Shown here piece after piece: positions 1-57,065 of a stretch of 64,000 nucleotides of DNA. The position numbers and the translations under genes are program-made. Under the pieces are notes generated by a model that worked only from the letters and a program-made list of their open reading frames with translations, had not been told where the DNA came from and searched no databases. How positions within the stretch are numbered: the stretch's first letter is position 1; each line of letters starts with the position of its first letter. Source of the DNA: Catajapyx aquilonaris. Lineage: Eukaryota. Location of the stretch: the NCBI GenBank assembly GCA_000934665.2, contig KZ538258.1, positions 1 to 64,000 on the forward strand, in the 5' to 3' direction.

Positions 1-352
1 CCAAAAAAAACCTCCTTCTGCGCGCTGATCATCTCTCACAGCACCAAAAAGCAAGCGGAACGTTCCTTGGCAATCCTTCTCTGTTTTCAAACCACACAGG
101 AAGCCGCCGACCAAAAATAATGCACAGATTGAACTTCCACCCCTCCTCCATTCACGTTTCTCCACACACGCGACAATAGACGATAACGACACACCGACTT
201 CAACTCAGGCTCAGCCCCTTGGCGACATTTCCGCCTCCTGTGTCACGTCTTCGACACCCTGATCAGCTGCCAACAGACAAGACATCCAGTCACTCATGAC
301 CTGACACCAGGAATTATTCTTGATACTCATCCACTATTCCCTCCTCAGCAGA

Positions 353-425
<73 letters not shown>
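353..425. repeat. (ATT)n microsatellite
   Basis: Uninterrupted ATT tandem array followed by short AAC/AGC triplets. Confidence 0.97.
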
Positions 426-427
<2 letters not shown>

Positions 428-2695
428 AACAGCAGCAGCAACAACAACAATAACATATGCAAAAAAATGAAATTAGTGGACATCAGCTGAAACCCTCAGC
501 CACCATTAGACAAGCTGAAAAAGGTTCCTTGCTCTGGCGGCTAAAGGGCGTACTATACTGAAAGCCTGACTTAGCCGGAACGCCTATAATTTTGAAACGC
601 TTCGTGCTGACGACCGTGAATATGTGCGGGTTTTTTTCCCTTATGGTACGAGGGATATGTCTACAGGAAGGGTATAGAGCGGCACGTGCTCCATCTTTTT
701 GCAGGCTGCACGGGATGCAAAATAGGCACCTTTTTTCTTTATCATGCAAAAGAAGAGGCGGAAACATGGATGCCCACAGCTGTTGCCATGACTTTTCCGT
801 ATCCATTTGGCATCGGTCCTAAATATTAAAAAAAGAGTGGTCCGATCAAAAGGCACGCCTCTTCCGTTCGGCATTTCCGGATTTGCGTGGGGCACAATAC
901 GCACCGATCGAGAATCAATACCGCGACGGTCACAACTGGTTGCAACTCGGTATCTTTTTTTGACCGCCCACAGATATGGATTTTCTTTTCAACGTGAGCG
1001 CCTAGAATTGCAGCGCATTTAAAAATGCGACGTACATCTTCTGATTTGACAAATGTTCGCTCGTTTTCTTAAAATGGGTCTCGTCCATAAGGGTGTGCAA
1101 TATTATGAGACGAACAAAATGCCTTCCAAGGTAATCTCTACCAAAGATGCGCAATGGAACAACATATTGGTATCGAACATAGCCTCAATATTTACAATAT
1201 TCTTTGTGCAAATAACATTAATGAAATCCCATATGACTACCCCTAACTTGAGACATTCATTCCAACATTGTTTTCCAAGAACGTCAACATAAGTGTGGCC
1301 AGTAAACGGATCATCGCTCCTCTATTCAGAAAAACCTATTGTTTTCACCACGTGACAATGGACCCTGACTTGACGCCCCCTAGTTATGTCAGTATGTGTA
1401 GGATACAACCGTCGGTTACACAAGTTGCGTGAGCACAGTAGCTTTATATATATATATAACTGTTCATTCAACCTTGGGCACTCACGCCTTGCGTTCAGAA
1501 ACACGGCCTATTTATATCAGTTGGAAATGATTCACAGCCGTGGGTAGGGAGTAAGAAGCAAAAAAAGAAAGAAAGAAAAATGCACGTCTCATGTGTAGAA
1601 GTCGCGAGTGGGAAGGAATTTCATGAATCCTATTCCCTGTTTTCTTTCAGGCCCTAGCATGAATGGCAAACTTTACGCCAGCAGGAAGTGAACTGGCAAG
1701 AGAGTAATAATACCAGCTCCTCCCGAACCCATCAGCAATAATTAACGAATGGTGCCATTCGTTCTTGTACTGCGCCATTTCCATCTTCATCGCTTACACC
1801 GAGGTACTCTGTGCTCCATGAAGCATCCCCCGAGTCTGTGATAATACCCACTGTTTGAAGGTTCCCTGACTTCTCACTCCCAAGTCAGAAGAATCAGTTT
1901 TAGACTTAGTATTTGTGATTATTGAGTATAAGCTTGAGGAATTGAACCGGAGCACCTATAAGCACTGCAACTCTCTTCTTATACACCTCATCTTCTACAC
2001 TGCATTGGCATTTACAACCGCGTTTACAGGCCCAGCTTCTGCGCACTTAATTACATTTTACAGCCAGACTAATGACTCGTTTTGCCTTTGTCCGGGAAAG
2101 CAAAGCCGCCGCCATATCTCATACCGGAAATGTCCCCAATTTTTAATACATGAAGCGCGTTCCACTGAATGGCTTCATCCCAAATGATTTAACATCCCCC
2201 TCCTCCCCATCCGCTTTGTTTGCATTACAAGCCTACGCAGTATTCGAGATACCCTCTGAAACGCGGTTGCGGTCAACTGCCCTTCCTGCAATATATGCAC
2301 GACTGTTTCTGTACATAGAGTTGAATAAAATAATGCGGTGCAGAATGGGAGGTTATTGGACTTGATCGATCAGCTGCCCACTATGATCACCTTAGCAACG
2401 ACAATCAACCCAACAGGGGTTAATTAACCGCCAGCGCCAATTAGTCCTTACCGCAACCTACTTTCCGATAGACTGGACTCTTGTTTCGCACCAACCAAGG
2501 CCGGGTACATTCACCATGAGGTAACTTCCATTGACCCCTCCGTAAATTCACTAACCAACTTCCTCATCCGCTGTTACAAGACACCCCAAAAATGCTGGTT
2601 TTTAACGGTGTGGGGAATGAAGGTGTGTTGAGCGTGTGTGTGTGTGTGGAAGGAAGGGTTGGGTGGGGGGTCGGAAAGATGTTATTTTGGCCCAC

Positions 2696-2821
2696 CTCCA
2701 ACGCCAGATTGAAAACACTTGCTAAACTTCCGAGCCCGGAGATGAGTCGAGTGGCGAAAAGCTCACTACTGATGGATGGACCCGTCTTTGTCATCCTTGA
2801 ACTACGGGACACGAAGTGTCC
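2696..2821 (-). CDS. Candidate 126-nt phase 0-0 exon (GHFVSRSSRMTKTGPSISSELFATRLISGLGSLASVFNLALE)
   Basis: Acceptor gacttaactattccag|, donor GAG|gtgggc, open frame with internal ATG at 2794. Confidence 0.35.
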
Positions 2822-3733
2822 CTGGAATAGTTAAGTCACTATTGTTATCCAGTATTTTCGCCACGGTTGGGTCCTTGAATCCTTTCATCATTGTCGAGCC
2901 AACAACAAAAGCCTATTTTTCCCTCAAGCAGGCTCCCACAACTACCGGAACCACCATGGCACTCAGATCGACCTACCTATTAGGCAACATCAAAAACCGC
3001 TTCGTCAATTGGAAAATGCATCACCAAAAACACGGTCACAAATCTTAGTTTCCATACCATCCATTGTTGCGCAATCCACCTGGCTTTCCTGGTGAAGACT
3101 GACTTGCAAAATACACCCCTAACTGTGAGAGTCAACAAGTCAATCAGCAGCTAAAAATTTCAACTGTACATTTAATCACGCATATATTTCATCCACCTGA
3201 CAACTTGTTAATAACACTGCAACTGATTCTATACATCAGGGTTCCTTGTTAGAATCCACCTGTTCGGTCTCTCCCCGCCCTCAGGTAACCAACCGCGGTG
3301 CCGTATCTGTTGCATGGCGTCCTTCGTACATGGTAAACTGGATAAACGATCTCAAAAACATACCCACTTTCGCGACAAGGAGATAAGAAAGCACCTACAC
3401 AAAGCCCCAGCAACATCCGCTATAGATTTACACGTGAAAGACTCGCCCCGACGCCAAAAACTCTCACGATTTTTTTTTTCTCGCTTTCCTATAGTGCACA
3501 CACGAGAGCTATCAACTTATCCTCACGGAATGCATCATTATCTCTTTTTTCCAATACAATTCTGTGCAATAAGACATACCTATGGATCATCCTCCCTGCC
3601 TGCACCTGCCGGTGTTCGTTCTACAATACAACCGGATTGTCCGTTCGATATCCTAAAGTAGTCTCCACAACAATGACAGCAGGCAGACTCAGCCCCTCAA
3701 GCTTCCCACTCCAACGCAGCACAATGCGTTTCA

Positions 3734-4324
3734 TTACCAGAAAGACATCCTGCCCAGCCAATCCAACAATACCTTCCATGTGCCCCTAGATTCGGTTTTC
3801 TTGTCTCGGGGAGGAGGCGAAGCTGAATCTCCATTCTCTTGGAAGTGTCGTCTCTCTGGCAGGGGACTGGGTGCCACCTTCCTATAGGACACCGTGCAGA
3901 CGCATTCGATCCGCCTGGGCTTGGCCGGTACCCTGGCCGACACCGTGATGTGGTTGATGAGCGAAGGCTGTGCCGGTCCCACTACGAACCCGTTCCGTCC
4001 ATCCTGCTGGATCAGCGTGGTGGTCCGTATGGGCTGCGGAAGGCTGCTGGACTTGTTGGGCTCCAAATCTATGCCCGTCTTGTACTGGTACAGCACGCAG
4101 TTGATGCTGGCGTCGCGACGCTTCCTCTTCCGATGCGTGCCGAACGACTCGTCCGTTTGCGTCGACGCATTCTTACGTTCCGTCAGCCGATACACACGCA
4201 CTCGCCTCTTCATGGCCGCCGACAGACTGGGGCTTTCACCGAGGGATGGTTCCTCGTACTGTTCCTCCACATCTCGATGCAATCGCGGTGTGCCCTTTCC
4301 CAACCTGCGCCGATAACAGGGCAC
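3734..4324 (-). CDS. Intronic orphan ORF/candidate exon, unknown protein (first ATG at 4213; candidate exon 4304-3738)
   Basis: 196-codon stop-free, GC-rich frame. ATG in GCCATGA context; motifs KNASTQTD and HRKRKRR. Possible acceptor ggcgcag| at 4304 and donor TG|gtaatg at 3738. No family recognised. Confidence 0.5.
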   Translation of the reverse strand: MPCYRRRLGKGTPRLHRDVEEQYEEPSLGESPSLSAAMKRRVRVYRLTERKNASTQTDESFGTHRKRKRRDASINCVLYQYKTGIDLEPNKSSSLPQPIRTTTLIQQDGRNGFVVGPAQPSLINHITVSARVPAKPRRIECVCTVSYRKVAPSPLPERRHFQENGDSASPPPRDKKTESRGTWKVLLDWLGRMSFW

Positions 4325-6020
4325 TCGGTCGATGATAGGGACCCAAAATTATTTACCGGAGCGACTCCACAGCCCCCAGGTTATTCAATAGGCTATGAAA
4401 TATGCAATCAGGCGGGTGAAGGAACTTTCCAACTGAATCACGGTCCGATCGGGTGGTGTTGCAAGCAGCTCTTTTTCCGACCATCTTCCCATAGTGACTT
4501 TCCAACTACTACTGTAATATCCACTTCCTTCCAGGCAGCGCCCCGGAATAGGCACCCAAACCGTTTTGGCTCCTCTCCTGTATGAGTTTTCTCTCCTGCC
4601 AAAGGGGGCCACTGGCGACACGCACGGGACAGAATCGTCGGAGAGGGGGGAAGGGGAGTAAATACCCCAAACGTGCAACTTCTGCTTCTTTTTCTTCCCA
4701 AGAACACCACAAGTCCCCTCCAGCACCCCGTATCTTATAATTTATGCTGCGACACGGGGTCATTATTTTCCCCCGCCCTCTGTATTGGAACTGGAAACCT
4801 CCAGGAGAGGGGGGGGGGGGGCACATAACAAGGTTGGCGCCTTCTCTGCCGGAATGTATTCGTCTACAGGGTGATTCAGTCCTTGAGCGTGTACGGAGGG
4901 TTGCGTAAAGGGTAATGACTCCGAAAATAGAGTCCAGCTGTGCGACAAATTCAATGACACTATCCTTCGCATACCGCAACCCCTCGTGCTTTTGGCTGAC
5001 TCACACTATTATCCAATTCTACACTTACAGCCAGACAGCCAGTCAATCACCTTTCTTTACGACGGAATCTAATACTTCGGAGTCTGACACTAACATTTTC
5101 ATAACGCACTTAAAGTTGAACTTCTGCTATTAGAGGAAAATTTCTGCATCCAATCGGAAGCTGTCCCTGAATATTTTCATGCACTCTTATTAGACCAGAA
5201 AATTCTTTCCATTGCCACCTTGCCCTGCAGATACCAGCATTAATGCCAGTATGCCACCAATTATACTGTACTGTACAATAGCAGCAGTCAAAATTAGATA
5301 TAAACTCTCGAGTGCTCCATCAAAACCTTAGGGGTTCTTCCAGGCATTATCCTTCTGCTCGCAGGCACTTGTGTCACAATGTAAATGCCACACGCAATCC
5401 TCCCATTTTTTTTCCGCTTCCGAACAATATACCACGGGTAATCCGTTGTACGCTCTAATTAGCTCCCACTCTCAGGATGCAAAACCTGTCCGGATGAATA
5501 AAAGATGGGGCGAAAATGGCTTCCAAAAGCGTTGTTTGCATCGTCAGTTTGACAATTCCCTATTGAAATGGCAAGCCTGATGAATAGGTGGAGAGTTGGC
5601 CTCAGCCAACATATTGTGCATCTCTTCCTTATTTAGAGCCCTGCATTTCGATATGCTGGCCCTTCTAAGGACCAGCACTTTGTCAGTACCAACAAGACGG
5701 TTGGGAAAGCTCAAAAATCACTCCCAGTTAGCCCAACTCTACAGATTCATAACTCACGAGACCGCGTTTAGAAAGCCTCACATCCACCTGCGATCAGTCA
5801 AACTGCTCTTTTCCGCCAAAGTGAATCCCCGTGTAAGCTAGCCTTTACTTTCAGGCTTTCTCCTACCACGTTTTTTTTTTAAAAAAAAGGCGTGGCTCTG
5901 CTGCAGGACAGAAGATCGAATTTCTAGCAGCCCACCGGTTTATATTTAAAAGAACAACCGCCTTTGTTAACCGGGAGCGTGGACGACAGGACTTCACTTG
6001 CCATGAATGTGCTGTTTACA

Positions 6021-6662
6021 CAGGGTGTCCCCAAAGATATGCAGCAACAAGGCATGAATTACTCTACAATTTGTTTGCAGCTGGTATAACAGGGTATCTT
6101 ATGCAGTGAGTGTAGCATGTGCAGGTCAGGCAAGTTCTTGCATAAGGAGTCAAACGTGAGGCACAGCGCATAGGCACCACACATAATCAGCGCCTTATCA
6201 ACTCGAAGTAATTGCACGAATTAATAATTTGGAAAACTTAACAATGGAAATAGGTATTATTCTGGAGCATGTTTGGAGTAAGCTAGTGAATTTTCACTAA
6301 GACTCGAGCCAGCAGGAAAACGCGTATCCATCCACTGTCCTGACTTTGACAGCCAGTAGACCGGGTACTAGGTGGCTACCTGGTTCCAAATCCATTTACT
6401 GATCAATTTGTGCTGAACCTGTTGCAGTTTTCCTGAGAAAACTGGTTGCAAGTCTATAAATGGAGGTCACGCTCGCTTCTAAAATTCCATACTAAATTTT
6501 GAAAATTATAATTTGTGTGTCCCGGCTGCCCAAAACATGCCACCGTACATTTGAAATCTGCCTACAATATCCTAACGAGTATTCACATATCAAATTACGT
6601 TCGATATCATTACGCCACGCTACCAAATTCAACCTCTGCCCCGCCCCTTTACGGACACCCTG
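6021..6662. mobile_element. Non-autonomous Tc1/mariner-type element (MITE)
   Basis: Terminal inverted repeats CAGGGTGTCC ... GGACACCCTG followed by TA; the left TA is degenerate. Confidence 0.6.
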
Positions 6663-7123
6663 TATAAACTAGGCCTCCGGGCGTCCTTCCGCAAATGGCA
6701 ATTTTCCAAAGGGCCTGCTGGTGAGGCTTTACAACACCAGTGCACTGCTCCAGATAACTTTGCAGGGAGCCAAACTACCAGTGAGGAATGTTGTATACGT
6801 ACGAATATGACGGTACCGTTGCAAAAACCTGATTGACGTGCGATGTCCCCAGTGATAATAAATCCCCGTTTGGTTCCACCTGCGCGCATCACAACATCAG
6901 CTGGAGTGGGGCCAAGAGTGACCCATCCCTCCACTCCTCCTCAACATCCGCATAAATAAACCCCAGGGGTTGAAAATCCACATTTCTCGAGAGCCCCAAC
7001 TTGATAAACACTTATCATCATATATCCTGGAGTTAAGTCACCGGATGCAGGGTCACTTACACTACTTTCAACACTGCGCCTCTTGTGCTAGGCCACATGA
7101 CTCAGGCACTACACAGTGGTTTC

Positions 7124-7202
7124 CTCAAGGTTCCAGTCATTTCACCGCATTTGTTCAACAAAATTTGTTGAACAAATTCGGTGAAATGACTGGAACCTTG
7201 AG
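7124..7202. repeat. 79-bp near-perfect palindrome, probably a miniature Harbinger-like MITE
   Basis: 39-bp arms (ctcaaggttccagtcatttcaccgcatttgttcaacaaa and its reverse complement), 1 mismatch, 1-nt centre. Confidence 0.9.
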
Positions 7203-8657
7203 ATTGGAACCTCAGAGTGTGCGTAATATTTAATCTTACGCACACGCTGATCGCAGGGAAATGTACCACATCAGACACTTTTTTCGGCCAAACGCCACTG
7301 GGCTAAATCCGTTTTATTCGCATGTTAATCACTTGATCTGGCTCAACTATATATCATGCAACCGGCCCTAAATGGCAACAGTGTTGATATCCCCCCTGCA
7401 TTGTCACGACCATGTCACGCCCCTCTTTCTCAGCCTAATTCCACTAGAACTAACGGGCACGAAAGAACCATCCGGACACCCCTGAAAAGTATCCCAGAAT
7501 CCATATACTGATGGACTCCCCTCCACTTAAACACACTTGAGGCGCGTCCCCCCCCCCCCNNNNNNNNCCACTACGATCCGCCCATTCCATCACCCCCTTC
7601 CGGCATCTCTATCTGAAGGCTATGTATGCACAAATGCACAAAAGCAGTCATAGACTGCAAACCCCTATTTGCATTTGTCTCCCTCTTGGCTAAACCCCGC
7701 CCCTAAGACTGTATTAGGTGCCTGAATGGGGAATACTAATCAGGCCTGGCACAATTTGCGATCCGGCCTATTTTCCCCGGGAACATTCCGTGTTTGGACA
7801 AGTGCGCCATGTGGCTGCTCATATTTGTCCGGTGTAGCCAGGTACGACAAGAAATGGCCCTGCTTTTGTGCCAGCAGTTTGTCTCCGCTGAATGTTTTTA
7901 GAGCGTAATAATTTGCACAGGACGCGGAGTTAGCCGCGCTGAATTTACATTTAGGATGTGCCGCCTGTTGGGGACCCATTCTCCTGGTGGGTCACTCGGA
8001 AAACCACGACTGGCCCCACCAAAATCTAGAGCTGAGGATTCTAACAATCCATTCCTCATTATGTAATAAAATTAGGAGAAATTTGGGGTGAGCCATTACC
8101 GTCACGTCGTGCGTGCCGAATTGGACCAAACTTGGAGTTCTCGTAACTTTTCTCTCTCTCCCCGCCCCCCTTCCCTAGAGCCCCCCGACTGCGAAATTAA
8201 TTTCCTGCGCATCTGGTTCAAGATCAACCTTTTCACGCTCCGAGAGCCAAAAGAGTTTTCTCTCCGGGAAAGCTTACAGAACATCTCGAAATCAGTGTTT
8301 CCGCCACAGTTTGAAACCTTTCATCCTCAGCACCATTCGAAAATGAGCTTTTCTTTTAAACTCCTCTCGCCTAAAGACGCCAGAAAAATATTCAGACCAT
8401 GTGCAAGGTCAAAATCCAATACCCCCTGCCCGCCGCGCCGGTAACAAAACGAACATCTTTGAAACAGTATCGATTCAGACTCCCAGTTTCCGCATGGTCC
8501 GTCCGAGTCAGACGAATGCAAATCTGTCCATATCCAATAATATCGGCTGACTTCTCTCGAACAAAAGACACTCGAGCATTAACTTTCACCGATTCCCACA
8601 CCTAGAGGGTACAGCCCCGATACTCAGTCGACGGTGAAGTCGATACCAATCACTCAC

Positions 8658-9250
8658 CTTCTGGCCCGCCGCCGCTCCATCAACACCCAACAACGTGCGG
8701 AGTCCCAACCAGTGACATCCTCACGCTGTCTTTTTCCCGCCGGCCCAGCTCCGAATTGGCATCAAACCGACAAAAATCCAGCCCCGGCCCCCCCTACATC
8801 CTGTTCTTGCCATTGTCCCTTATGCAACCAAGCAGTTAGTTGCCTGCAGGCTACACTGGCGATCATTCCTGCGTGAATCGGGTCCTAGCGGATCACGCAG
8901 GCGCACAGCCAGTCTTGCCTGGCCCCCGCTCCTTGCTGTACAACAAAACCCGGTAGCACTCGCTATTTCAAAGTACCGGCCCGGACCCGCCCGGTTCGCC
9001 GGTGAATGAACCTGCGGTACGCTGGATCCTGGCCAATTTGCACGAAGAATGGCCCGTGCCCCCCTGCTTCAGTTTTTGGCACCAGCCCGGATCCATAAGG
9101 TCCCGGCAGTGTCCACCTATCAGTCAAAAGTGCACACGACACGCCCGCGCGGTTATGGGATGGCCGCACGGAAATAAACGTGACGCTTCCCGTATAACAC
9201 GCTGGACATGTCGTGCTCTGGGCGTATCCCCACGCTCGCAATGGCCATCA
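8658..9250 (-). promoter_or_regulatory. Candidate internal promoter/first exon (ATG at 8680, MERRRAR-R, phase-2 donor)
   Basis: GC/CpG-rich stretch ending in the consensus donor AAG|gtgagt at 8658. The 5' boundary is approximate. Confidence 0.4.
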
Positions 9251-12200
9251 CGCCAGCCGCCAATTCGCACTCATTTCCCCCTCCAAGAAAGGAAGCCTAT
9301 AGTTGAATTAGGTGTCAGGTAAGGAACCTCCTCGGGGGACTAAAAATAGCAGTTCCGTACTGCCTGGCCTAGTTCGGAATGCAAATGAAGGCACGAGTGT
9401 CAACATGGGGGCGCCGCCTTTTACATCAATCTATACGTAGTATAGAGAGGCCAAGATGCCAGGCGTTTTCTCTATTTTGCATCTCACCTGCCGACATGAT
9501 GACCCACATATCGCGCGATCAACATCTGTCCGACGTATTGTTTCCATTACACATACTAGGTATGAACCAGGGCATCGGTCCGATTGTGCCAGGAGTGACG
9601 TCTAGCCCCGCACATCGGATCCCCGCCAAACACCTGGGATCCATCCGGTCCCCGGTTATGACGCGGAAGTCGGAACACCTGGCAACCTTTCGGCCCTAAT
9701 ATTCCCCCGGCCCCCCNACACCCAATAAATCTCGACTTTTCCTTGTCACTGCCGACCGTGACGTAGGATTCAGCACTGCGGTCGCTAACGTATTATTAAC
9801 GCGTGTAAAAAGCACCCCTGGTGGAACCAGCTCCTCAGGAACCATAAAGGGCCCCTCTCCATGCTCCACTTTTGGACACCCCTTGTTGTAAGGTCACCGG
9901 AAATGTCAGCGGAAAAGGACATGATGACTGCCGTGACAATCCCCGGGGGTCTCATTATTAAGGGAAACATGGTGGGACCGCAGGGAGGAAAAAAAACAAT
10001 CACAAAAAAATGGTGTAAAGGAACGTTACTGAAACCAGACTTGTCTGCAGGAGAAGACCATGTGTATACAGTTGTGAGGTCGTCAGGGTCATTTTTGGAA
10101 TATAACGGGTGGGAGGGAGGGGGGGAAGGGTGTGGAGGGTTAGTGCCCACTCTTCATAAACGTCAGGAATGATCGAAGAGAACTCGTCTGTTTCGCACAA
10201 GCCCCGTTTTATAACCGTGTTCTAGTGGCAGCCATACAAGTGTAAAAGGGAGAGGAGGAAGCTGGCAAAAAAAAATGGCGAAAATGGCCCAGGTTATAAA
10301 TCATTTCGCACATGTTCGACTTCCGCCGAATGCGAAAGTCACACATTGATTAAAGTCTGCCCACACTTCTGCAAAACACCAGCCCGGAAATGACGCCCCA
10401 CATCATTTTTTTAAAGTGCAGAAAAATATATACTTCCGCGCTCGTCCCACTTTAACGCAGCTCACAAATGCTCGGAATAATCCAAACGACTCCGTCTATG
10501 AGCTTTCAAAGTGATTCAAGCCCTCCATGCATTATTCATAAAATCCTAACTATCCATCTATGCAGGGGGGGGGGGGAGGTTTAAAAAACCGACCGGTTAA
10601 ATAGCTTAATTGAATCCCCAACCGCGCCTTTCACTATTGAGAGAAACTCTTGCTAAATGAAGGGCTCTCTGTGGTCAAGAAACCGAGTTTCGCAGAAGCC
10701 ACTTTTTTCCACCACCACGAAGAAAAGTACATACATTTTAACGTAATATTTCACGTTACAAATGGCCACCGGTCATGCTAATTAAGCCCTAGAGCGCCAT
10801 ACAAAAAGGTCATGAACACGGAATGAAGCGCCCAAATGGCAAACGTAACAATGGCAACTTTCATTTGTCCAACGTGCAAAAAAAAAAAAAAAATGTGTGT
10901 GTGTGTGTGTGTGNTTCAGATCGATGCCCGGTGCCGATCTGGAAAATGGACGATTCCATTTCGGTCCACACTGTACCACTCGATGTGGTTACCATACAAA
11001 TAGGGCCGCATTACGGTTACCAAAGACGAACCGCATTCGGATTTTTCCCTTTCACTTTTTTGAACCCAAAAAAATAACTTGATGATGATGCAGAATAGCA
11101 TCAAGGCTGAGGGTTATTTCTACCGCCACTTTGTCCCCCTTTTCTTCACGGTTATATGAGTTCGGGGAAGGAGAACCGTTTACCTATTTTCGACGCAACG
11201 CACGAGACTTTCATCCGGAGACTTGGAAAGGAAGAAAGAAAGAAAGGAAAAAAAATCAGCAGTCGATGCAAAGCACCGAATTGTACCAATGTACCGAAAA
11301 ATCTTACATATAAATTTTGATGCAATATTATTTTCCAGCATTTTGAAAGCTAGATTAATTATCCAGCAGCAATGACATTGTCGCGCTTTCCAAACCGCGA
11401 AAAAAAAGGCCGTTATGGGCAAGATGGCGATCAGCAGGGGCGTTTGTATTTGGTACAAGGGTCAAGGTAGTCCAGAGCGAAAATGAAGTTTTTACGAGGC
11501 CAACTTCCGGCCTTCCCCTTTGGCAGAGTCCAGCAGGTGAGATGCTCTAACCAATTAGGCTGCCACATCCTATTTCACACCGACACATGCGCCGCTTTCC
11601 CCTCGCCCACATGGTATACATTATAGAAAGGGAAATCACGAATAATCTACTTCGACCCTGTTCGAATTTGGATGACTGTAGAAGAAGAAAAAAAATGGCA
11701 ACATAATTTTTCTCTATCTGTATACGACGGAGACACAAGTCGGAGGGGGCAACTTTCACAACCTGTGGTGACGACTTTTCCTGCGTAACTAACGGAAACG
11801 GGCCATAAATTCAGATCTTACCCATTACCATCAGTTTCACTGCCAAAACATATTTGGTTATTAACGTTATCGCCTTTCCTTTCCGCTGTGCATTACAGCT
11901 TATTTGAACCCTTGGAAAAATGATCCCCATTTACCAAATGAGTCCAAGAGAGCATGAATATTGACACTCCCCTGTCCCACATTAAAATTTTACCATAATG
12001 GCGGTAATTACCGCTAAGAGGTTTGTGCTAGCCCCTCCCCCTTATTTACACCTACCGCAATTTTGCCAGCGGAATGGGATCGAACTAGGCCAACCCAACT
12101 AAATAGCCGGGCATTTATGTGCAGGCGAGATTAGTCCTACGGAAGCGTCTGGCGGTAATCTCATTTTGCAAATAATTCATCTCCGGCCCCTTGCAATGCT

Positions 12201-15200
12201 ATTAGGGTATTAACGAGTTCAAAAGAAGGGAGTCCATCAAGAACCGTTAAGCGTCAACAGCTCCCCATCTGCACGAATGGATAGTTCTTAACGGACCGAT
12301 CCAACTTCCACCGTATCGTGGGTCCATGCTTGCATAACCCTATCAATCTCATATATTCATCCCAGCCTTTTGTATCCTGGAGATTGTTTGTCCTCCGCAT
12401 GAAGGGCCCACCCGCTGGGTTATTTATAGGCATTTTAATGCTAAATGATTACAATCGCAGTGTGGCAACGCTCACACTTGGTTTCCATGGGCCACCTTAA
12501 GTCCGGAGTGCTAGATTTAGGACCAGGCTGGGCTAATTCACAAGGTCAATCCAGGAACGTCCACGCCAACTAGCTCTAACGACTAATGATATTTCATTCC
12601 CAATTTTGATAAACTGCTCGTAAACATCAGTCGGGAGGGACAAGGTGCGTCCCAGACTGGTTTTACTAACTCGCGTTAAATGTGTCAAGTACACTCTCGT
12701 ATATTGGAAAAGCGGCAGATATTTTGGTGGTGGGCGGAGGCGTGCCTTGGTCAGGCATGTTTGGCTTCAAAAGGCCAATATCGGAATTAATGACCAGCGT
12801 GTCTCCATGCAACGAAGCTGTGTCGGATTAAGATTGAGATGCTTCACACGGGTCCGTACAGAAACGGATAAAATATAGCCTATCGTATTGTCCGAGGGAA
12901 CGTCAAACCAGATTCAAGTTTCTGGAATAGTCTTTCGAGGACGGAAATTGCGCTTAAACGAAACTGGGAGAGGACATCTGATTTCATTACGGACATTTCC
13001 CCGTCTTTCCTAATCTCATTTACGTCCGGGGCCGTTCTTCATAATGGCATTCGTGAGACGGATTTACTAGATTCTTCGGGCCTCGAAGGGCTCGCATTAG
13101 TGTCACAAAGAACATCCTGAATAAGTACGAAACCTACATTTCAGGCCCGCAGGGAACCAAGTCGGCCTTCAAAAACTTACCCATTACAATAAATTACAGC
13201 CTACGCTAGTCTCTGTCCTATGATTAGTCAACCCCAGAGAACTCGGCCGTTATCTGCCGTACACATTTTGATATATCCAAGTACTGACAGCATTCATGAA
13301 AATGCCGGATAAATCTGCGGGTCCAGTGCAGGAAGCGAGTGGCCTTTTTATCAAGAAGCCAAGAATGCTGGCAAGCCCCCAATGGGATACGCCGTTATCC
13401 TATTATAAAACCAAGCCTCCGTTTTACCCCAGGTTTTACGTGCGCGGGAACTCAACGGTTCATGCCCGACCACAACCTCAAATACAATCTACGTCTACTT
13501 ACACCTGGCCCGTCGATGTGGGTCTCTGCACTTATGCCACCTCCTGTTGCCAGCTATCCCCCCAATATTGACCACACCGCCCCTGCTAATGATCGGCAAA
13601 TTAACCCTACTTACGTCATCAGGGTCCACAATCCAGAAAAAGACCTGCGCATTGTCTCTCGTCCTATAAACTTGCACCCTGTCTTTCACCACCGGCGCCA
13701 TTGACCCGCCAGGTCACCCCCCTCAAGAAAACACTCTCACTCTTGACCTTATCTGGTCATCAGTCCAGAACCACTGTTTGTTTGCTCCCGAGAGCACACG
13801 CCATACAACAAAGAGAAAGGTGTCCGAGGTGGATGTTATGTCGGCTGGCGAAGAGCGACTGGTTCCTTCTCTTCTGCCCCACTTCCACCACCACCAACGC
13901 TACTAACACTGGAGGGTCCTGGGACCTCCTCCAAAAAAACATAACCACTCCAACCGATTTGTTTGGATTCCGCTGTTCACATTATGTCAAGTGGGCACTG
14001 GTGACAGAGCACCCCCCTGCTAGTGACAAAATGCCCCTAGCAGGTACACCGTGTTTTCTTACCGTTAGGGTGACACCCCACCGCCACCACACGTTGTTTA
14101 TCACGTACTGGAAAAAGGTCAAGATTGGCGCAGCCTTCTTCACTTACTAAAAGCGACTTACGTGAAGGTTTCGCGCCGAATCAAGGTCGGCAGGGCCCGG
14201 TCTCGGCCCAGAAGGACATCTGCCTACATGTTAATTAGGGCTGCTCCCTTATGTGGTCAGAATTAGTTCCCAAACGCGGCGCTCAAAAACATCTGCCGTC
14301 CTAAAATACACGCGGACGAGGGGCACGGAATAATAATTTGCTAACCGGTACTGGCAGGTAAGGTCACTTCTGAATGTGATCAGGCCCACGTACCGTCGCC
14401 CAGAAGACCCGCCGGTTGCGTAACTGCAATCCTAGAAATTATTGTATTGTTTCCCTAATTAGCCCGATAAGCGCCGCAGATACGAACGTGATATACACAC
14501 GCAGGTGCCTCGTTATCAACGTAGGACGTTCGAAGAACTGGAAGCCAAACAAAAAGGTTATGACACCTTGTTCTCGCCGCAATAAAACTATCATAACTGT
14601 GTTTCCGACCGTTATGTCCTCTATTACTCTACAAGTCATTACGTCCAATCCCTACTAAATTTCCTCGAGTTGCAATCCAGCTCCACTAATTCTGACCCGA
14701 CAGGTGAGATTAACCATATCACCCTGCAGCATAAATGATCAAACGCGCTCAATAACCGCCCCAAGCTGGCAACACCGCTTGGTTGCAAGTCATGTGGTCG
14801 CTAATTCACTGCTATTATCCCGTCACAGCTTTTCTCAGTCGGAATAGAAGCGCNNNNNNNNNNCCCCCCCCCCCCTCTTTTGAGAAGGAGGGAGGCAAGG
14901 AAAAATTTCACCCAATTGTCCTTGATGCCGGTTTCGCTAAGATTGCCATGGCGGAGAGAAAAAAATAAGAAAAAAACTCTCCATTTCGCTGACCGGACTT
15001 TGCCAGCCAGGAGTTGGCCGGACGTCCTCGGCCCATCAGTATAAAAACCTTTCCCTTTCCTCCAGCAGCCAGTGGAAGACCTCGTGACCTGGACCTTCTC
15101 CTTCCGACACCTCCCATTCAGTTTCACTGACCTCCTTCCAAAGAATCCGCCACTATCTGCGGACATCAGCGCAAATTGGCGCCCATCCCCTCACGCCCCT

Positions 15201-17674
15201 AAGTTTCAATTTCATCCGATTTCTCATTTTTTTCTTCTTCTTCTTGCCGGCGCGATTAAAAACCTAACAAACTAGATCAAGGGTTCTCGACCTTTGCCTA
15301 TTCAACATGCAAAGTGTAGGGCACGGAACCTGTTTCATAGGATGGAGAGGGTGGCTTTCAATTGAACATCCTTCTCCTTTCAATCTGCCTCCAGGGCGGA
15401 AAGAACAACACACACACAAAATGAAGTAGAAATATATTAAACTTTCAACCTGCACGCAAACGGCTTATTGGCAAAAATGATATGCCCATTTTACACTTCC
15501 GCGGTCGTGCAAGTTCCATTGGTGTTTACACCTGAAAAGGTCGAGACCCCACCGAGACACGGTGTGCAACTTCAATCAGACCGTTGACCCCGAACGCGAA
15601 CAAAAACAACAGGTGCTCATCCCTTCGCATTAGCCTACCTGAATCGCCATTATCATATCCCCCCCCCCCTTAGGGTACGTAGGGGGACAAAATAGGGGGA
15701 ACTTCCTCCCTTTATATTTATATATATAAAAAATGAAAGATAAAATTGCTTCCCTCCCAAGTGCATTATCCACGCCTCGTGGCACCCATTTGTGATTACT
15801 TCGTGACAAAGGAAAACCTTTTCATCCCTGTAAATAAAAGTGCTCGCAGCCTTCCTCTTGTGTGACACACTTGAGTCGGCCTCTTTGGAACCGTGCCCGT
15901 GATGCTGGCCATTTTCCAGGGACTACACATGTGCGCCGAGATGCGGTACCGATCTTTGGATTATTACCGCAGAATATGTCCGCATAAGAGGCACCGGCAA
16001 AATAATGCGTCATCGTGTTACTTTGTCAATGACCCGTGATCATGACCTGATATGACATCCGACGACATTATTAGCACCCATTAGGTAGAAAGGCNNNNNN
16101 NNNCCCCCCCCCCCCCACCAGATGAAGTGCCTCTTTCCAATGTCAACTGAAGGATAGTCTGGAGATGTCATCAAAGCACTCGGGTCGCAACCAGTGTTGA
16201 CATTCCTCATTCCAGGCAGATCTCGACAGCAATGGATTTACCCTCAACGGCGACATCCGACTCAAGTGCGACCAAATCGACCTTGGCGGAGAAACTGTTG
16301 GAATTACTGTATGTCAGTCCCTGAGGACAAGTGAGAGGATAGAGCGAGGTCGACTTCCACGCTATATATTTCTGCGCCCAAATTCATTACATTAAACCTA
16401 TTTGCGGTCCGATTCAGCCAGTCGATAAATAACCCGCAAGTAATCATCCAAACGACTTCTCAAAACAATCCGTCCGATTCCATCCCCGGATATCAACCAC
16501 AAGGTCGTGCCGTATCTCCTACAAGTGCATTAAATCCGCCCAAGATTATTGCTTTGTTTATACTTTTGTTTTCTCACGCTGATAACCCCCCGTAGCGCTA
16601 ATCACACAGATAAGCAGCACCCCGCCCTCCCCGTGAGAATCGAAATAAGCATTTTACGACAATCTCCGCAATTATCCTCCTATGACACAACTATCGGCAG
16701 CCGGATATGTTCATCGTGAGACCTGCATGTGTGTATGTTTATGGCACCGGAAGGCCGCCATGCTAATTTAAACTTTGCTACCTAGTTTCAGCCATCCTCC
16801 CCAGAGGGTGCTTCGAGCAGCGACGGCAAACGACTTCAGCGCTGACTGCGGTCGAGGCCCGAACTTCCAGGACTTTTCAACTCTAAAATCGATCCTGGGT
16901 CCGGGTGTATAACCTGACCAGACGTCTGCCGACGGTCTTCCACAAGTTGCTTAAAAATTCATCGCCAAAATAAATTCTGCACATGCCCACATGCAAAACG
17001 TCCCGTTCTGAATTCTGATGCCTCCATTTAAGTTCCGGTGAGGTCGTGAGAACCTCCCCCACATTACTAGTCGCCACGGGCCTGCTGAATAACGACGTCA
17101 ATCTAATATTGACAGCCTTAAAATAAAATAAAAAAATCTTGACACATTATAGTAAAACCCAGACTTACCTCGAAAGCAAAGTAATATTTGACCGAATTGG
17201 CATTATTCAAAATTAATTTCGTTCGCACATTTCCTTCATAACATCATTCGAAAAGCTTATATCTTAAAATCTCAAATCGACAAAACATCATTTGGCGAGA
17301 CAAGCGCATGCATCATCCCCCCCCCCCCCTTTTTTTTAAAAAAAACTCCCTTTTTCCTCAATTTTCTGGTGAAATAGACTGGAGACAGGGAGCACTGGGT
17401 GACTCGGGTTAGTTATATGCTGGAAATTTTCGTATCAATCCCGCCAATCAGGATTTCAAAATCGAGGGCGGCGTAGTCGACACAAAAATTGCCAATTGGG
17501 CTTCAGCCAAATCGCATTTACCCAGTGCCATGCCTCAGGCCCAGTAATCCTCTTGTCCATTAAACATTTCCACACAAAAAAAAAATACAATAACCATCCC
17601 AACGGGCGTCAGAAACACAGCGCCCCATGCAATAATTTCCCGCCAAAAAAAATAAAAAACAAAAAAATGCTTAC

Positions 17675-17827
17675 CTCCGGATTTGTTCCGGGCAAGTTCT
17701 CCTCCGGAGGAAGGTCTGGAAGCAGTGAGAACTTGCGGTCGTACACGCAACGGTGCAGTTGTCGGTCCAGGAACCGGAAATCGTGGTAGGTGCGACGCAC
17801 TACCCAGCTCTTGCCCTGGCTCGTCAC
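17675..17827 (-). CDS. CdGAPr: Internal exon of a CdGAPr/ARHGAP32-33-family RhoGAP, PX domain (VTSQGKSWVVRRTYHDFRFLDRQLHRCVYDRKFSLLPDLPPEENLPGTNPE)
   Basis: The 51-codon translation closely resembles the PX segment of ARHGAP32/33 as recalled (QGKSWIVKRSYEDFRVLDKHLHLCIYDRRFSQL). Flanked by acceptor tgcacag| and donor GAG|gtaagc; phase 0-0. Confidence 0.95.
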
Positions 17828-18091
17828 CTGTGCATCGGAACAACTCTTCAGTTTTTTTATTTCCCCAGCGCGCATTTGGGCCGGCGCAATATTTTGGGCC
17901 CTATTAGGTAAATTGGCAAAAATGAAAAATTGCGCCCCGAGTCATCTGAGGTCCATGCCGCAGGGGGGGCTATGCCCTCGCCAAATCGGCGTGCCTCTTA
18001 GTCGTTTACATTTGCAAATTTGGACGGCGCAGGCATGAAGAATGGGCGTGGCAGGACCACTTTGCAGAAGGCGGAAATGCAAACTCCTTAC

Positions 18092-18163
18092 CTGCACGCA
18101 GAGGGCGCGGTTTTCGCCATCCTCCGACGCCAGGGGTTTCACCTCCTCCTCGCATATTTGAAA
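18092..18163 (-). CDS. CdGAPr: Internal exon of the CdGAPr-family gene (FQICEEEVKPLASEDGENRALCVQ)
   Basis: Acceptor ttctgtgtcttttgtag|, donor CAG|gtaagg, 72 nt, phase 0-0. Links the flanking conserved exons in frame and corresponds to the variable linker before the PX strand. Confidence 0.9.
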
Positions 18164-18847
18164 CTACAAAAGACACAGAAACCTCGTGAAATCACACGTA
18201 CAGACCTGCAGGCACGAACAGCTATACGGAGGGGGGGAAAAAAAAGATGCTCTAGAAACAAGGCGGTGCTCAACAAGTGATGTGCCTGCCTTTGCAAAAA
18301 CCGCCGCCAACCGCAAAACCGCACCTCCAGGATGACATTTTCAAGCCAGCAGACAATTAGCAACTTTGGTGTGAACTTGGCCTGCTCAACTTTACAGCCT
18401 CTTATCCGGTTCGGATGGCAAGTCTCGGTCTCTTATTGGCCTACTTTCACGGAATTTGCTTCGAGAATCGGTAACAGGAATCTGCACTGTTTATTTCAAC
18501 GTCAGGATTTTGCTCATTAGCAAAGCCAAGGCCTGGTTTTCAAACTCTTCAATGGATGCAGGTTCGAGTCGGGGGTTTATTTTCACACTGGCCGCAAAAC
18601 TGTAGTATACAAGCGATATATATAAATTACTATGAGGTTTACAATCCTAGTTTGTACAGTTCCACCTGCACGTAGCATGAAAAGGAGGTAAGTAGCGCAT
18701 CATTTCACTCGCCTAATGCCATTAAACCATTTGGCTCGAAATAAATTATAGGCAAAAATTTATACTCGGTTGAACAGGATCGTCACGAAATTGGCCTAAC
18801 CAGCTAGAATGAAAACTAGCAGGATTTCCTTGTAGTGTACCACTATA

Positions 18848-19115
18848 CAGGTAGGTCCCGGTCTTACGAAATTTCACATTCACATTTTCACAAAATTGCC
18901 TTAAAATACAATTTCATTATTTGAAACGAACATAATAAATCGAAATATTAACACATCGCTGTAACACCTCTGAGTCCCAACACACTACGTACCGGCGTTC
19001 TTTTGTTTTTCGTGGTGCATTATGGCAGGGTCTATAGATACATACGGCTAGACTTCGTTTTACGACCTGTTTTGCTGACACCTAACCCCGTCTTACAGTA
19101 CAACGGCCCTACCTG
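18848..19115. mobile_element. Tigger/pogo-like MITE
   Basis: TA|CAGGTAGGTCCCGGTCTTACG ... CCCTACCTG|TA ends with TA target duplication. Confidence 0.7.
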
Positions 19116-22100
19116 TACATGACGGCGAACTGCTCAAGTATATGCGAAGAAGTTATGGAATGTTTACACCAGCTGCTTCCCTTTAAAGTGGTTGCTGGGA
19201 TAAACAATCAATAAATTCTTGAACGGGAGACTCTTTGGCAGTGTACCATCCCCATGAACTATACCAGCTCCGACTCGGAGATAAAATGCGAAATGGGCAG
19301 CACCCACAGATGAGTGTGGAGCAAACAACATTTCATCTGAAATAATCAATTTCGAGTCGACTGTCATCGAGAGGCTGGATAATATTCCCGGCTTCCGATA
19401 AACAACACAGATCGCGCTAAAAACTCCACAAAAAAATAAAAAAAATAAAATAAAACGCCCTTCTCCCGACGCTACAAAATGATTGCTTCCAAATCCTGAA
19501 TCCCAACCTCCCAAGACATTCAAACAGTCTCACTTTTAACTTGGGCTCTCATACCAATGAGGCAACGCAATACTATCCTATAACGTGATCCGGTAGGGCG
19601 CCACCCTCATCAAGATCCCTTGAATCCCCCGGCTTGAAGCCCGTTAATCCCAGGACAGAGGGCGCTTCAATTTTCCTCAGGCAACTTGGGCCCAGGATGG
19701 TAATGAGGCTTCAATCGCGCATCCCGTTGCGTATAGTAATGCCATACCAAAAAAAAACAACAACACATCAATCGATAATATTCATCCTTGGCTGCAACAC
19801 AGATCCTTTTACGAGCCCAGCCACCATACATTTTTTATTTCCTCCCGCCGTTGCGTTGGTTTAACCTGCAACTTTCCATATAACGCTCAACTTTTGTTTC
19901 GCCGCCGTAAATCACATCTCCCGGCAAGGAACTTCGCCCTCCTTGTTTCCTCGGGACCTGCCTTCCAGCAGACAATCGCACAAAGTGGCAGTAAAAAGGC
20001 CCCTCCTTTGTTCCTTGCTGCTCTCCAGACATTCCCCAATATAATGATCGACCACGAGGTTATACAATATCTATAACAAGCAATCCAGCTGGGAGACATC
20101 CCCCCNNNNNNNNNNNCCCCCCGAACAGTACTCCCCCATCCCCCGAAAAAAAAAAGTGCTGGAGAATTCCTTTGCCACAACAAACCTATTGTTTACTATA
20201 TGCGAGGGTTATAGGTCTCCTAGATAGGTCTAATTATAAGGGCTGATCCCAACGCCAACTGTTCCTTGTATTCTTAAATTACTTTGCATACTTCCCACGG
20301 GCAAAACTTTTTTTCTTCTTCTTTGCAACATTTTTTTTTGTTCTCGAACAATTCTGCGCTTTTCCTAAGACCAGCTGTGAGGGAGCTCTTACAGTAGTTT
20401 CGCTTAAGAGTTAATGTGGGGGACTAATTATTTCTACCCGCGAATATACGGTTGTGGCATGCAACGTACTTCCACCACTGGTCTATTTTCTGCGCGCACA
20501 TAATCTGCTGGCTGTGCAAGGACAATGCAGAGCCATTTACTGGTTACATCATCAGAAAAAAGTACGGCCCAGCATCTCTCATGCGCGAAGAGAGCTTTGC
20601 CGTAAGGCACTGCTTTTGACAGTTTTTTTTCACGCACAGACAAAGAGCAATTCCGACCAAATCCTCTCTTTCCAAGCACAAAAGAACAAAATACAAAAAC
20701 GAGGAAGGATAAAGCTTTCATTTTGTATATACATCGGATTTTAAAAGTTTTAAAATCCGATCCGGATTTAAGCAAAGTGTAAACCACTTCAACAGGATAA
20801 GACATTGCACCTGCCCACATTTATCGAAGTTTTTAAGTATTTTGTGGTACACGCTCAAATTACAAAAATACATATTGTGAACAATTAGTTGGAGGCAGCC
20901 TCACATTCATGAGGCTTAGGTGCACCAACCAGCAAAGGTGTGATTTTCATAAAACATTTTATCCGGAGGAATTACAAAAAACAAAACAAAAAAACACAAA
21001 AAACAGTAATAGCAGGTTAATTCAAAACATCTCCAGCACACTAGACATTCGCCAAGAAATAATTACACCAAACTTTGTTTTATATGAATACGTTAGTCTA
21101 GATTTTACTTGATTTTTGCAATATAATGCAGAGGAATCCGATCGTGATGCATTGCGGCAAAATGGGACCGTAATGAGTGGGGGATATCCACACAAGCGCA
21201 ACAGAAGGTGTATCATACTGTATATACTGTATACCTTTAAAAATAACCTCACATTTCAATTGATGATAGTCTATCTCTATACTAACAATTAAGTGGGTTG
21301 GTTTTAGACGGGTAAAACCAGTATTCGAAACTGAGATTTCGCACTTAAGCACTTGTAATGTCACCTGCTATCATTATGTGAAAGTTAAGGTAGATTGGAA
21401 TACTCCTGGTTTGTCAAGATTAAAATTAACGCGCAACAAAGTTGCCTATATTTTGTGTACTGTGGTGCAAGGCAGTTAGATAAAACATGGCATCCTTAAA
21501 GGGGAAGATGGACGCGTAGGGAAATTCCGCCAGGTTTATAAGTCGTAACTTGCCTCGAGAGATGCATCCTGCTTGCTTTTCTGAAAAGTCGTATCCGGAT
21601 TTGTTTACTCCCTTCTGACACCAACCCACTCAATTGACAAGAACCTTTTGATCAATCAAAACACACCAAACTCCGTCTTGTAATCTATCAAACGCCTAAT
21701 GAAAGATTAATTTCGTAAACAGGAACAGCTGTGCATAGCATGTCATCCAATGCGGAAATGAAGCCTAATTTTGGCACAGCCTTTTGCGAATATCTCCAAG
21801 TGTGATCTAGATGACTAGTCAGTCAAATTATCCACGGAGCAAATAGTAAAACACGCACAGTTAACCTAACCGAGCCATCTCCACATCCTCGGCGGCTCCA
21901 CCTTCACCACATCAACGCCGACAAATAACCCGAAAAGACTCCATCCCCTTCGATCCAACGTGATTGACTGAATCTTCCCAGGAGCCAGTGGCTGAGCAAC
22001 TCAATCGCCTCTGCAAAATAGATGCACCCTGCAAATCTAGCTGTTTTTTTTTGTTTTTTTTGCGTTTATCAGTGCAAGACAAAGTCTCATTAGACGTCCA

Positions 22101-22261
22101 GGGAGCGGATCTCATCAACGGCATTTCAGCTGACGGCTAACGTCTCATTTATCCTACTAAACAAGGTTAACACGCACAGACTGCTGCCTCAGGGCACGTG
22201 TACACCCAGGCCGAAAGACATAACCGTGTTACACCTGCCGTCTATATTAGTAACTGCTTAC

Positions 22262-22417
22262 CTGCAGAGGCCCTAGCTCGACGTACTCGTAATGGAAATG
22301 AGCACATTCGTCCAGGCGTGGAAATCGGGGCCTTCCCTCGGTTCCGGACCCGGTCAGATGCTGGATCCGGATGCTGCCTCGGGATGTCTCGACCTCGGAA
22401 GTGGAGCACAGACCACT
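22262..22417 (-). CDS. CdGAPr: Internal exon of the CdGAPr-family gene (SGLCSTSEVETSRGSIRIQHLTGSGTEGRPRFPRLDECAHFHYEYVELGPLQ)
   Basis: Contains the family-diagnostic FPxLxECAHFHYE motif. Acceptor ctattgtccattgcag|, donor CAG|gtaagc; 156 nt, phase 0-0. Not in the supplied ORF track. Confidence 0.95.
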
Positions 22418-56832: not shown

Positions 56833-56837
56833 TTCTT

Positions 56838-56899
<62 letters not shown>

Positions 56900-56900
56900 T
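56833..56900. repeat. Compound (TTC)n(TTA)n microsatellite
   Basis: Direct reading. Confidence 0.95.
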
Positions 56901-56916
56901 GGGGTCTATTATTATA

Positions 56917-57065
56917 CAGAGAAACCTGTGTACAGCGGAATCGCACCGTTCAGCAAAAAGTTTCCGCTATATCGGACAAAAATACATGGACTATGCCCGG
57001 TCTGCCAACATTTTACGCAGTATACAAATTTCCGCTATAGCAGGTTTCACTGCACGGTTTCACTA
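56917..57065. mobile_element. Tigger/pogo-like MITE (CAGTGAAAC family)
   Basis: TA|CAGAGAAACCTGTGTACAGCGGAA ... TTCCGCTATAGCAGGTTTCACTG with a duplicated terminal ggtttcact. Confidence 0.7.

Follow-up and report, generated by a model that had tools for sequence, protein, structure and literature searches.

We analysed the first 64,000 nucleotides (nt) of contig KZ538258.1 from the Catajapyx aquilonaris assembly GCA_000934665.2 (the window). On its minus strand, a RhoGAP gene resembling ARHGAP32/CdGAPr has a long intron that contains, in the same direction, an open reading frame (ORF) between positions 4348 and 3734. The stretch is very probably coding or derived from coding sequence, and we lean, on the evidence of its sequence, towards its being functional today. 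The reading we favour, at a probability of roughly 0.3, is that it may be an internally initiated first coding exon of about 112 codons, which would end near position 3878 and be joined in frame to downstream exons of the host gene. A preliminary description of the locus had proposed a lineage-specific nested gene or an alternative N-terminal module. These two remain the leading pair of readings, because the frame is coding-like and in host sense, has no counterpart in the orthologues and has no homologue that we could find, while the restriction to a lineage is weakly supported.

The frame is open for 204 codons and is the longest on the minus strand of the window, the next being 182, 163 and 160 codons long (ranked among the 56 frames of at least 110 codons in the window). 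The preliminary description had called it the longest sense-strand ORF, which it is, and the ATG at 4213, the AG at 4305–4306, the GT at 3736–3737 and the peptides RKNASTQTD and RKRKRR that it named are all present. Its upper limit of 4324 was arbitrary, as the frame opens at 4348. The GC content over 3751–4350 is 0.57–0.61, compared with 0.42–0.46 across most of the intron, again as described. Length alone is weak evidence of coding. In dinucleotide-preserving shuffles (2000 per region), a longest ORF of at least 204 codons arose at frequencies of 0.0365 for 3601–4600, 0.0145 for 3734–4348 and 0.053 for 3601–5000. When the composition at each codon position was kept (20000 shuffles), the frame stayed open at frequencies of 0.00015 for all 204 codons, 0.00175 for the 159 codons from the ATG and 0.03 for a core of 113 codons, although these figures, like those for ORF length, are not independent of the choice of the ORF for its length.

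The stronger evidence is the codon periodicity. Period-3 power over the ORF is 3.0, compared with 0.72 ± 0.43 in shuffled sequence, and this value was reached in none of 1000 shuffles. Neither flank of the ORF carries a period-3 signal, nor does another GC-rich island of the intron at 8600–9300. When 251 frames of at least 70 codons were ranked by period-3 power, the three frames at this locus took places 2, 4 and 5, with simple repeats, an ATT microsatellite and a T-rich tract, in places 1 and 3. A scan of GC phase in 2486 windows of 150 nt gave an amplitude of 0.40 over 3876–4225, above the 99.9th percentile of 0.34. This was the sole strong region, with only three borderline regions elsewhere, and nowhere else in the 64 kb is the period-3 GC signal as strong as in the 113-codon core. 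GC at third codon positions (GC3) is 0.70–0.73 over the ORF, similar to the 0.66–0.72 of the two host exons in the window, with positions 1 and 2 near 0.5. Tandem Repeats Finder and a repeat search detected no cryptic period-3 repeat structure at the ORF. As to the two simple repeats, a perfect (ATT)24 microsatellite at 353–425 gives the top period-3 signal of the window as well as poly-Asn or poly-Ile pseudo-frames, and a long T-rich/CT-rich low-complexity tract at 56650–57090, with poly-Phe or poly-Leu pseudo-frames, is second to it in period-3 power among simple repeats.

The signal has defined edges within the frame. GC3 is 28/45 upstream of the ATG at 4213, 91/113 from the ATG to codon 113 and 25/46 in the tail. 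The coding signature starts at this ATG and not at the proposed acceptor at 4304, since the segment between them lacks the GC3 of the core. At the other end the signal fades at about 3875, some 46 codons ahead of the stop, with a drop after codon 113 (Fisher p = 0.0014; change-point permutation p = 0.0235, 2000 permutations). Between 2801 and 7300 we found no other stretch with a GC-rich third-position signal like that of the core.

We hold with high confidence that the minus strand is the coding strand, as amino-acid composition favours it and as it has the ATG at the edge of the signal. GC3 cannot separate the strands, because a 142-codon frame on the plus strand has the same third-position column. 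Log-odds per residue, calculated from a model of real proteins built on four spider orthologues and set against random translation, were −0.04 for the ATG-started minus frame, compared with −0.23 and −0.19 for the plus frames and +0.035 and −0.118 for the two host exons. The summed fraction of Lys, Glu, Asp, Asn and Gln is 0.24 in the minus frame and 0.11–0.15 in the plus frames. Period-3 codon bias and composition together thus bear out the earlier view of a protein-like ORF on the host-sense strand, and the long antisense shadow ORFs that were also reported are present on the plus strand, with 252 and 142 codons.

The host gene was identified by tblastn with six ARHGAP32/CdGAPr-type proteins, five named spider proteins and one unnamed, which placed two exons of an ARHGAP32/CdGAPr-like gene on the minus strand of the window. 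Both exons end in phase 0 at an AG/GTAAGC donor (the slash marks the exon end). The second of them encodes part of a PX domain and matches Pfam PF00787 (E = 4e-06; 27.7 bits, above the cut-off of 21.6). The spider exon that continues the PX domain had no match within 1–17674 (tblastn; best E = 2.8). The intron that follows the PX exon must therefore exceed 17.6 kb and extend past the edge of the window, as assumed in the preliminary description, and the next host exon lies outside the window. Between the upstream exon, which contains VELGP, and the PX exon, about 22–28 residues of the spider orthologues have no match in the window (17828–22261, minus strand). A small exon that was missed, a PX exon that starts further upstream at a possible acceptor, gaag/AGT, at 17845, or an insert lacking in this species are possible explanations.

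The phases of the host gene bear on how the ORF could be spliced. The frame contains two candidate phase-0 donors, which would end the exon at 3878 or at 3773. Since the PX exon ends in phase 0, either of them would keep the reading frame into the next host exon. The exon end at 3878 is one codon from the change point in codon bias. In contrast, when the PX exon is spliced in phase 0 to the acceptor at 4304, the reading meets a stop after 22 codons. The preliminary description had argued that phase 2 at this acceptor does not fit the phase-0 PX exon and that the ORF is not a simple cassette, and this holds.

These observations suggest the following model. A transcript would start inside the long intron after the PX exon, from an internal promoter, and translation would begin at the ATG at 4213. 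The strongly codon-biased codons, about 112 of them, would yield a very basic, probably disordered polypeptide that carries the TQT and RKRKRR motifs. The exon would end at a phase-0 AAG/GT, preferably at 3878 and otherwise at 3773, through use of a weak donor, and would be joined to the next ARHGAP32/CdGAPr-like exon, which must accept phase 0. The predicted product is a RhoGAP isoform in which the N-terminus and most of the PX domain are replaced by a basic module. We favour this first-exon reading because the coding bias ends without a stop codon and because the phases fit the host gene.

Several observations weigh against this model. Donor candidates in the ORF, scored with a generic matrix, reach 0.16–2.16 and are all weak, compared with 6.11 for the donor of the PX exon. 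The change point at codon 113 is of moderate significance only and was found post hoc. The frame has a stop codon of its own, as a single-exon gene would, and the proposed junction would retain no more than the end of the PX domain, an awkward architecture. Four further ATGs lie upstream, between 4763 and 4272, one of which opens an ORF of 20 codons, and reading the sequence upstream of the main ATG by eye found no convincing core promoter. The GC phase scan, though specific at this locus, is not a calibrated exon finder, since it left the two known host exons unflagged, and a positional nucleotide model trained on 102 host codons favours the minus frame by about 5 bits only.

Table 1. Positions of the ORF, its candidate signals and the surrounding features within the window (a slash marks the exon boundary; donor scores come from the same generic matrix).
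Feature	Position	Strand	Remarks
Stop-to-stop frame, 204 codons + TAA (3736–3734)	3734..4348	-	open from 4348 to 3737
Codon-biased core, 113 codons	3875..4213	-	GC3 91/113, about 0.5 at positions 1 and 2
ATG, context gcggccATGa	4211..4213	-	third-position GC enrichment begins here; 159 codons to the stop
Upstream 20-codon ORF (MWRNST...)	4210..4272	-	stop TGA overlapping the main start codon (ATGA)
Moderately GC-rich flank (0.49–0.54)	4214..5000	-	upstream of the ATG; without period-3 signal
TQT tripeptide (residues 18–20), context KNASTQTD	4154..4162	-	candidate LC8 anchor
RKRKRR basic cluster (residues 28–33)	4115..4132	-	nuclear localization signal-like or polybasic
AAG/GTGGCA, candidate phase-0 donor, weak	3872..3880	-	exon end 3878; score 0.16; one codon from the codon-bias change point
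AAG/GTATTG, second candidate phase-0 donor, weak	3767..3775	-	exon end 3773; score 0.78
CTG/GTAATG, previously proposed donor, phase 2	3732..3740	-	exon end 3738; score 1.92; GT overlaps the stop TAA
cgcag/G, previously proposed acceptor, phase 2 relative to the frame	4304..4306	-	exon start 4304, the third base of a codon
Antisense shadow frame, 252 codons	3827..4585	+	codon-for-codon aligned with the minus frame; composition not protein-like
Antisense frame, 142 codons	3888..4316	+	same GC-rich third-position column; main strand rival
Host PX exon	17675..17827	-	ends in phase-0 donor GAG/GTAAGC; acceptor may instead be at 17845
Host upstream exon (...RFPRLDECAHFHYEYVELGPLQ)	22262..22414 (about)	-	ends in donor CAG/GTAAGC

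Sequence searches found no relative of the ORF. Pfam returned no family at E up to 1, the sequences of the PDB gave no match, and of the 154 and 917 candidates raised by two word-indexed protein searches none scored. An exhaustive search of 1.84 billion representatives produced one match, to a 2652-residue repeat protein. Its score adds up nine weak stretches, the pairwise E values are no better than 0.003, and it was rejected as spurious. In metagenome contigs, 154 pattern matches were found and none was confirmed. The ESM Atlas held no usable match for the minus frame or for the 142-codon plus frame, and its recognition values of 1354 and 1268 for these two frames say nothing on whether either is a real gene. 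Pfam was also run on five neighbouring or overlapping frames, and the only line obtained, DDE_Tnp_1_3 on the plus shadow frame, had an E of 0.35 and fell far under the cut-off. A protein search with the PX exon retrieved spider proteins only, at 58–70% identity and with nothing identical. This indicates that the species and its close relatives are unrepresented in the protein collections. The term orphan, applied earlier to the ORF, thus means that no relative is detectable in the collections searched, which supports a restriction to the lineage only weakly.

The ORF was also compared with the host family. By blastp against six orthologous ARHGAP32/CdGAPr-type proteins the best E was 0.84. A diverged duplicate of the host N-terminal or PX exons was considered and rejected, as the Smith-Waterman score, for which three orthologue PX regions were included, was reached by 8–20% of 2000 shuffles. 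Both comparisons agree with the preliminary description in placing the ORF outside the CdGAPr/ARHGAP32 architecture.

Assembled reads place the locus in a single context. In the probable source sample, a single Logan contig covers 2501–7559 with no base differences and a single length difference of one base, at 4809, outside the ORF. This contig has the depth of its neighbours, no extra contigs are piled on the locus, and no variants were seen in the ORF in the source-sample contigs. One further run contributed short repeat fragments only. The spanning contig makes an element in many copies, or a false join in the assembly, less likely, with the reservation that contig and assembly are not independent of each other. 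The locus therefore looks single-copy, with copies of less than 90% identity elsewhere in the genome lying outside this check. Repeat searches found no flanking repeats or target-site duplications at the ORF. The minus frame has no mobile-element Pfam domain and, by these measures, does not look like a transposable element.

The same contigs show other features of the window. The length difference at 4809 falls in a run of about 12 C (4809–4820, minus strand). Of three DNA runs of the source sample, two have contigs that read it one base shorter, so that its length is uncertain. Short dispersed repeat edges occur at 5871–5889, 15227–15245, 17320–17345 and about 18998, where source contigs continue into unlike sequence and the summed depth roughly doubles. 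The window contains 11 runs of N (56 N in total) that are assembly gaps, at 7560–7567, 14854–14863, 16095–16103, 20106–20116 and 55769–55780 and as six single N. One Logan contig bridges the gap at 16095–16103 with 7 fewer letters. Rfam and tRNA scans of 1–24000 detected nothing.

Two readings are close rivals of the favoured one, and the first is a coding relic. In that case the stretch would be a fragment of an old exon, a retrocopy, a mobile element or a virus that has kept its periodicity after losing its expression or the selection on it. The core with coding character spans only about 340 nt and has sharp compositional edges, strong splice sites are absent and no relatives were found, and at the chance level of 3% noted above a core of this length can be open by accident. 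However, the signal begins exactly at an ATG, the frame is intact for 204 codons, and the sequence bears no transposase or viral domain and none of the flanking marks of insertion, and the source reads show one copy of the locus. The second close rival, slightly less probable, is an independent nested gene in host sense. It would consist of one exon that runs from the ATG at 4213 to the TAA at 3734, be transcribed from its own promoter within the intron and encode a basic protein of 159 residues. Such a gene would account for the ATG and stop, for the start of the signature at that ATG and for the lack of a strong donor in or after the frame, and 159 codons stayed open in few of the position-kept shuffles (0.00175). 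It does not account for the fall of GC3 over the final 46 codons, which looks like an end of coding near 3875. In addition, no AATAAA follows the stop and the first ATTAAA lies 557 nt downstream of it, and the product has neither a homologue nor a confident fold. The ATG start and the end of the codon bias near 3875 would equally suit the first exon of a separate multi-exon nested gene, spliced at a weak donor to exons unrelated to the RhoGAP. We consider this unlikely, as no partner with a core-like signal occurs in 2801–7300 and only the three borderline regions are found elsewhere in the window.

The remaining explanations differ from the favoured first exon in strand, in exon limits or in denying a coding origin. 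A plus-strand gene, in the 142-codon frame at 3888–4316 or the 252-codon frame at 3827–4585, would make the minus frame its shadow. In its favour, the GC-rich third-position column is also that of the 142-codon frame (GC3 0.76), and the positional model trained on host exons tells the two strands apart by so few bits that it lends this idea some room. It is nevertheless improbable, given the less protein-like composition of both plus frames, the absence of an ATG at the edge of the signal and the lack of a Pfam or Atlas match. A chance non-coding ORF in a GC-rich intronic island would be compatible with a length reached in 1.5–5% of dinucleotide shuffles and with a frame picked for that length, but it is very improbable in view of a period-3 signal that no shuffle matched, that is extreme for the window and that the GC-rich island at 8600–9300 lacks. 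The preliminary description had further proposed a symmetric internal exon from 4304 to 3738, in phase 2 at both ends, belonging either to the RhoGAP or to a nested gene. The sites do exist, an AG/G at 4304 and a GT at 3737, and they delimit 567 nt, a multiple of three. As an exon it is scarcely credible. There is no coding bias from 4304 to 4214, the signal fades well before 3738, the donor scores 1.92 and overlaps the stop, and the exon would be out of frame with the phase-0 PX exon and with the host's phase-0 next exon.

Sequence around the ATG offers few further clues to transcription and translation. The flank at 4214–5000 is a candidate 5′ untranslated region or promoter. One Inr-like TCAGTT and one TATAAG were noted by eye upstream of the ATG; neither exceeds chance expectation and they were not used as evidence. 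The overlap of the upstream 20-codon ORF with the main start codon is compatible with termination–reinitiation and may equally be due to chance.

The predicted product of 112 residues is very basic, with an isoelectric point (pI) of 10.8 and 23 Lys and Arg compared with 8 Asp and Glu; the 159-residue product has a pI of 10.6. AlphaFold2, run on the single sequence, gave a predicted local distance difference test score (pLDDT) of 38.8, which is of low confidence and uninformative. In the ATG-started protein, RKNASTQTD corresponds to residues 13–21. In 20000 composition shuffles a TQT occurred at a frequency of 0.037 and a run of at least five Lys or Arg at 0.027, and the loose pattern K[KR]x[KR] was found in 32% of composition shuffles of the basic ORF protein. 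The TQT and basic motifs are thus leads, and are not evidence of function. The most elaborate form of the favoured model would be a lineage-specific RhoGAP N-terminal module made from an internal promoter, in which the lipid-binding PX domain is swapped for a basic disordered segment that might recruit LC8 through KNASTQTD and be directed to the nucleus or to acidic membranes by RKRKRR. We consider that full combination decidedly unlikely.

If the stretch is transcribed, it would represent either an unannotated, taxonomically restricted protein or a new alternative N-terminus that alters the targeting of a conserved Rho-family GAP. It would also offer a concrete case in which to study the origin or persistence of orphan coding sequence within long introns. 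At present it is an annotation lead in one poorly sampled arthropod genome, and nested genes, internal promoters and orphan ORFs are already familiar.

The ORF resembles known nested and orphan genes of long introns in having an intact frame with its own ATG and stop and no detectable homologues. It differs from them in lying on the same strand as its host and in its strong codon bias, which would be unexpected in a recently born ORF. Its basic cluster, HRKRKRRD, resembles a monopartite nuclear localization signal or a polybasic membrane-binding cluster in having six consecutive Lys or Arg residues.

For LC8 (DYNLL), the preliminary description gave K/R-x-x-x-TQT as the canonical binding motif, which is inexact. 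The TQT is present, but the Lys is at position −5 and an Ala is at −3. According to PMC6607443, the LC8 pocket is often filled by a Lys or Arg at position −3, and TQT alone often fails to bind LC8. In nearly all the tight binders described there, the residue at −3 is the size of Val or larger, with only two carrying Ala, so that small residues are less favourable without being excluded. By the same rules (PMC6607443), KNASTQTD resembles LC8 motifs in its TQT anchor, the Asp at +2, the small polar residue at −2, the Asn at −4 and the Lys at −5, all allowed or favoured. It departs from them in its Ala at −3, where a large side chain is expected (PMC6607443).

The closest parallel to the favoured model is found within the host's own family. 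As reviewed in PMC7226772, mammalian ARHGAP32 has one isoform with PX and SH3 domains, PX-RICS, and another without them, RICS. The predicted isoform would belong to the same gene family and follow the same principle, in which some isoforms have the N-terminal PX module and others lack it (PMC7226772). The ORF shares no significant sequence similarity with the ARHGAP32 orthologues. According to the same review, RICS lacks both PX and SH3 and PX-RICS has both (PMC7226772), whereas the proposed exon would be joined partway through the PX domain, the end of which would be retained.

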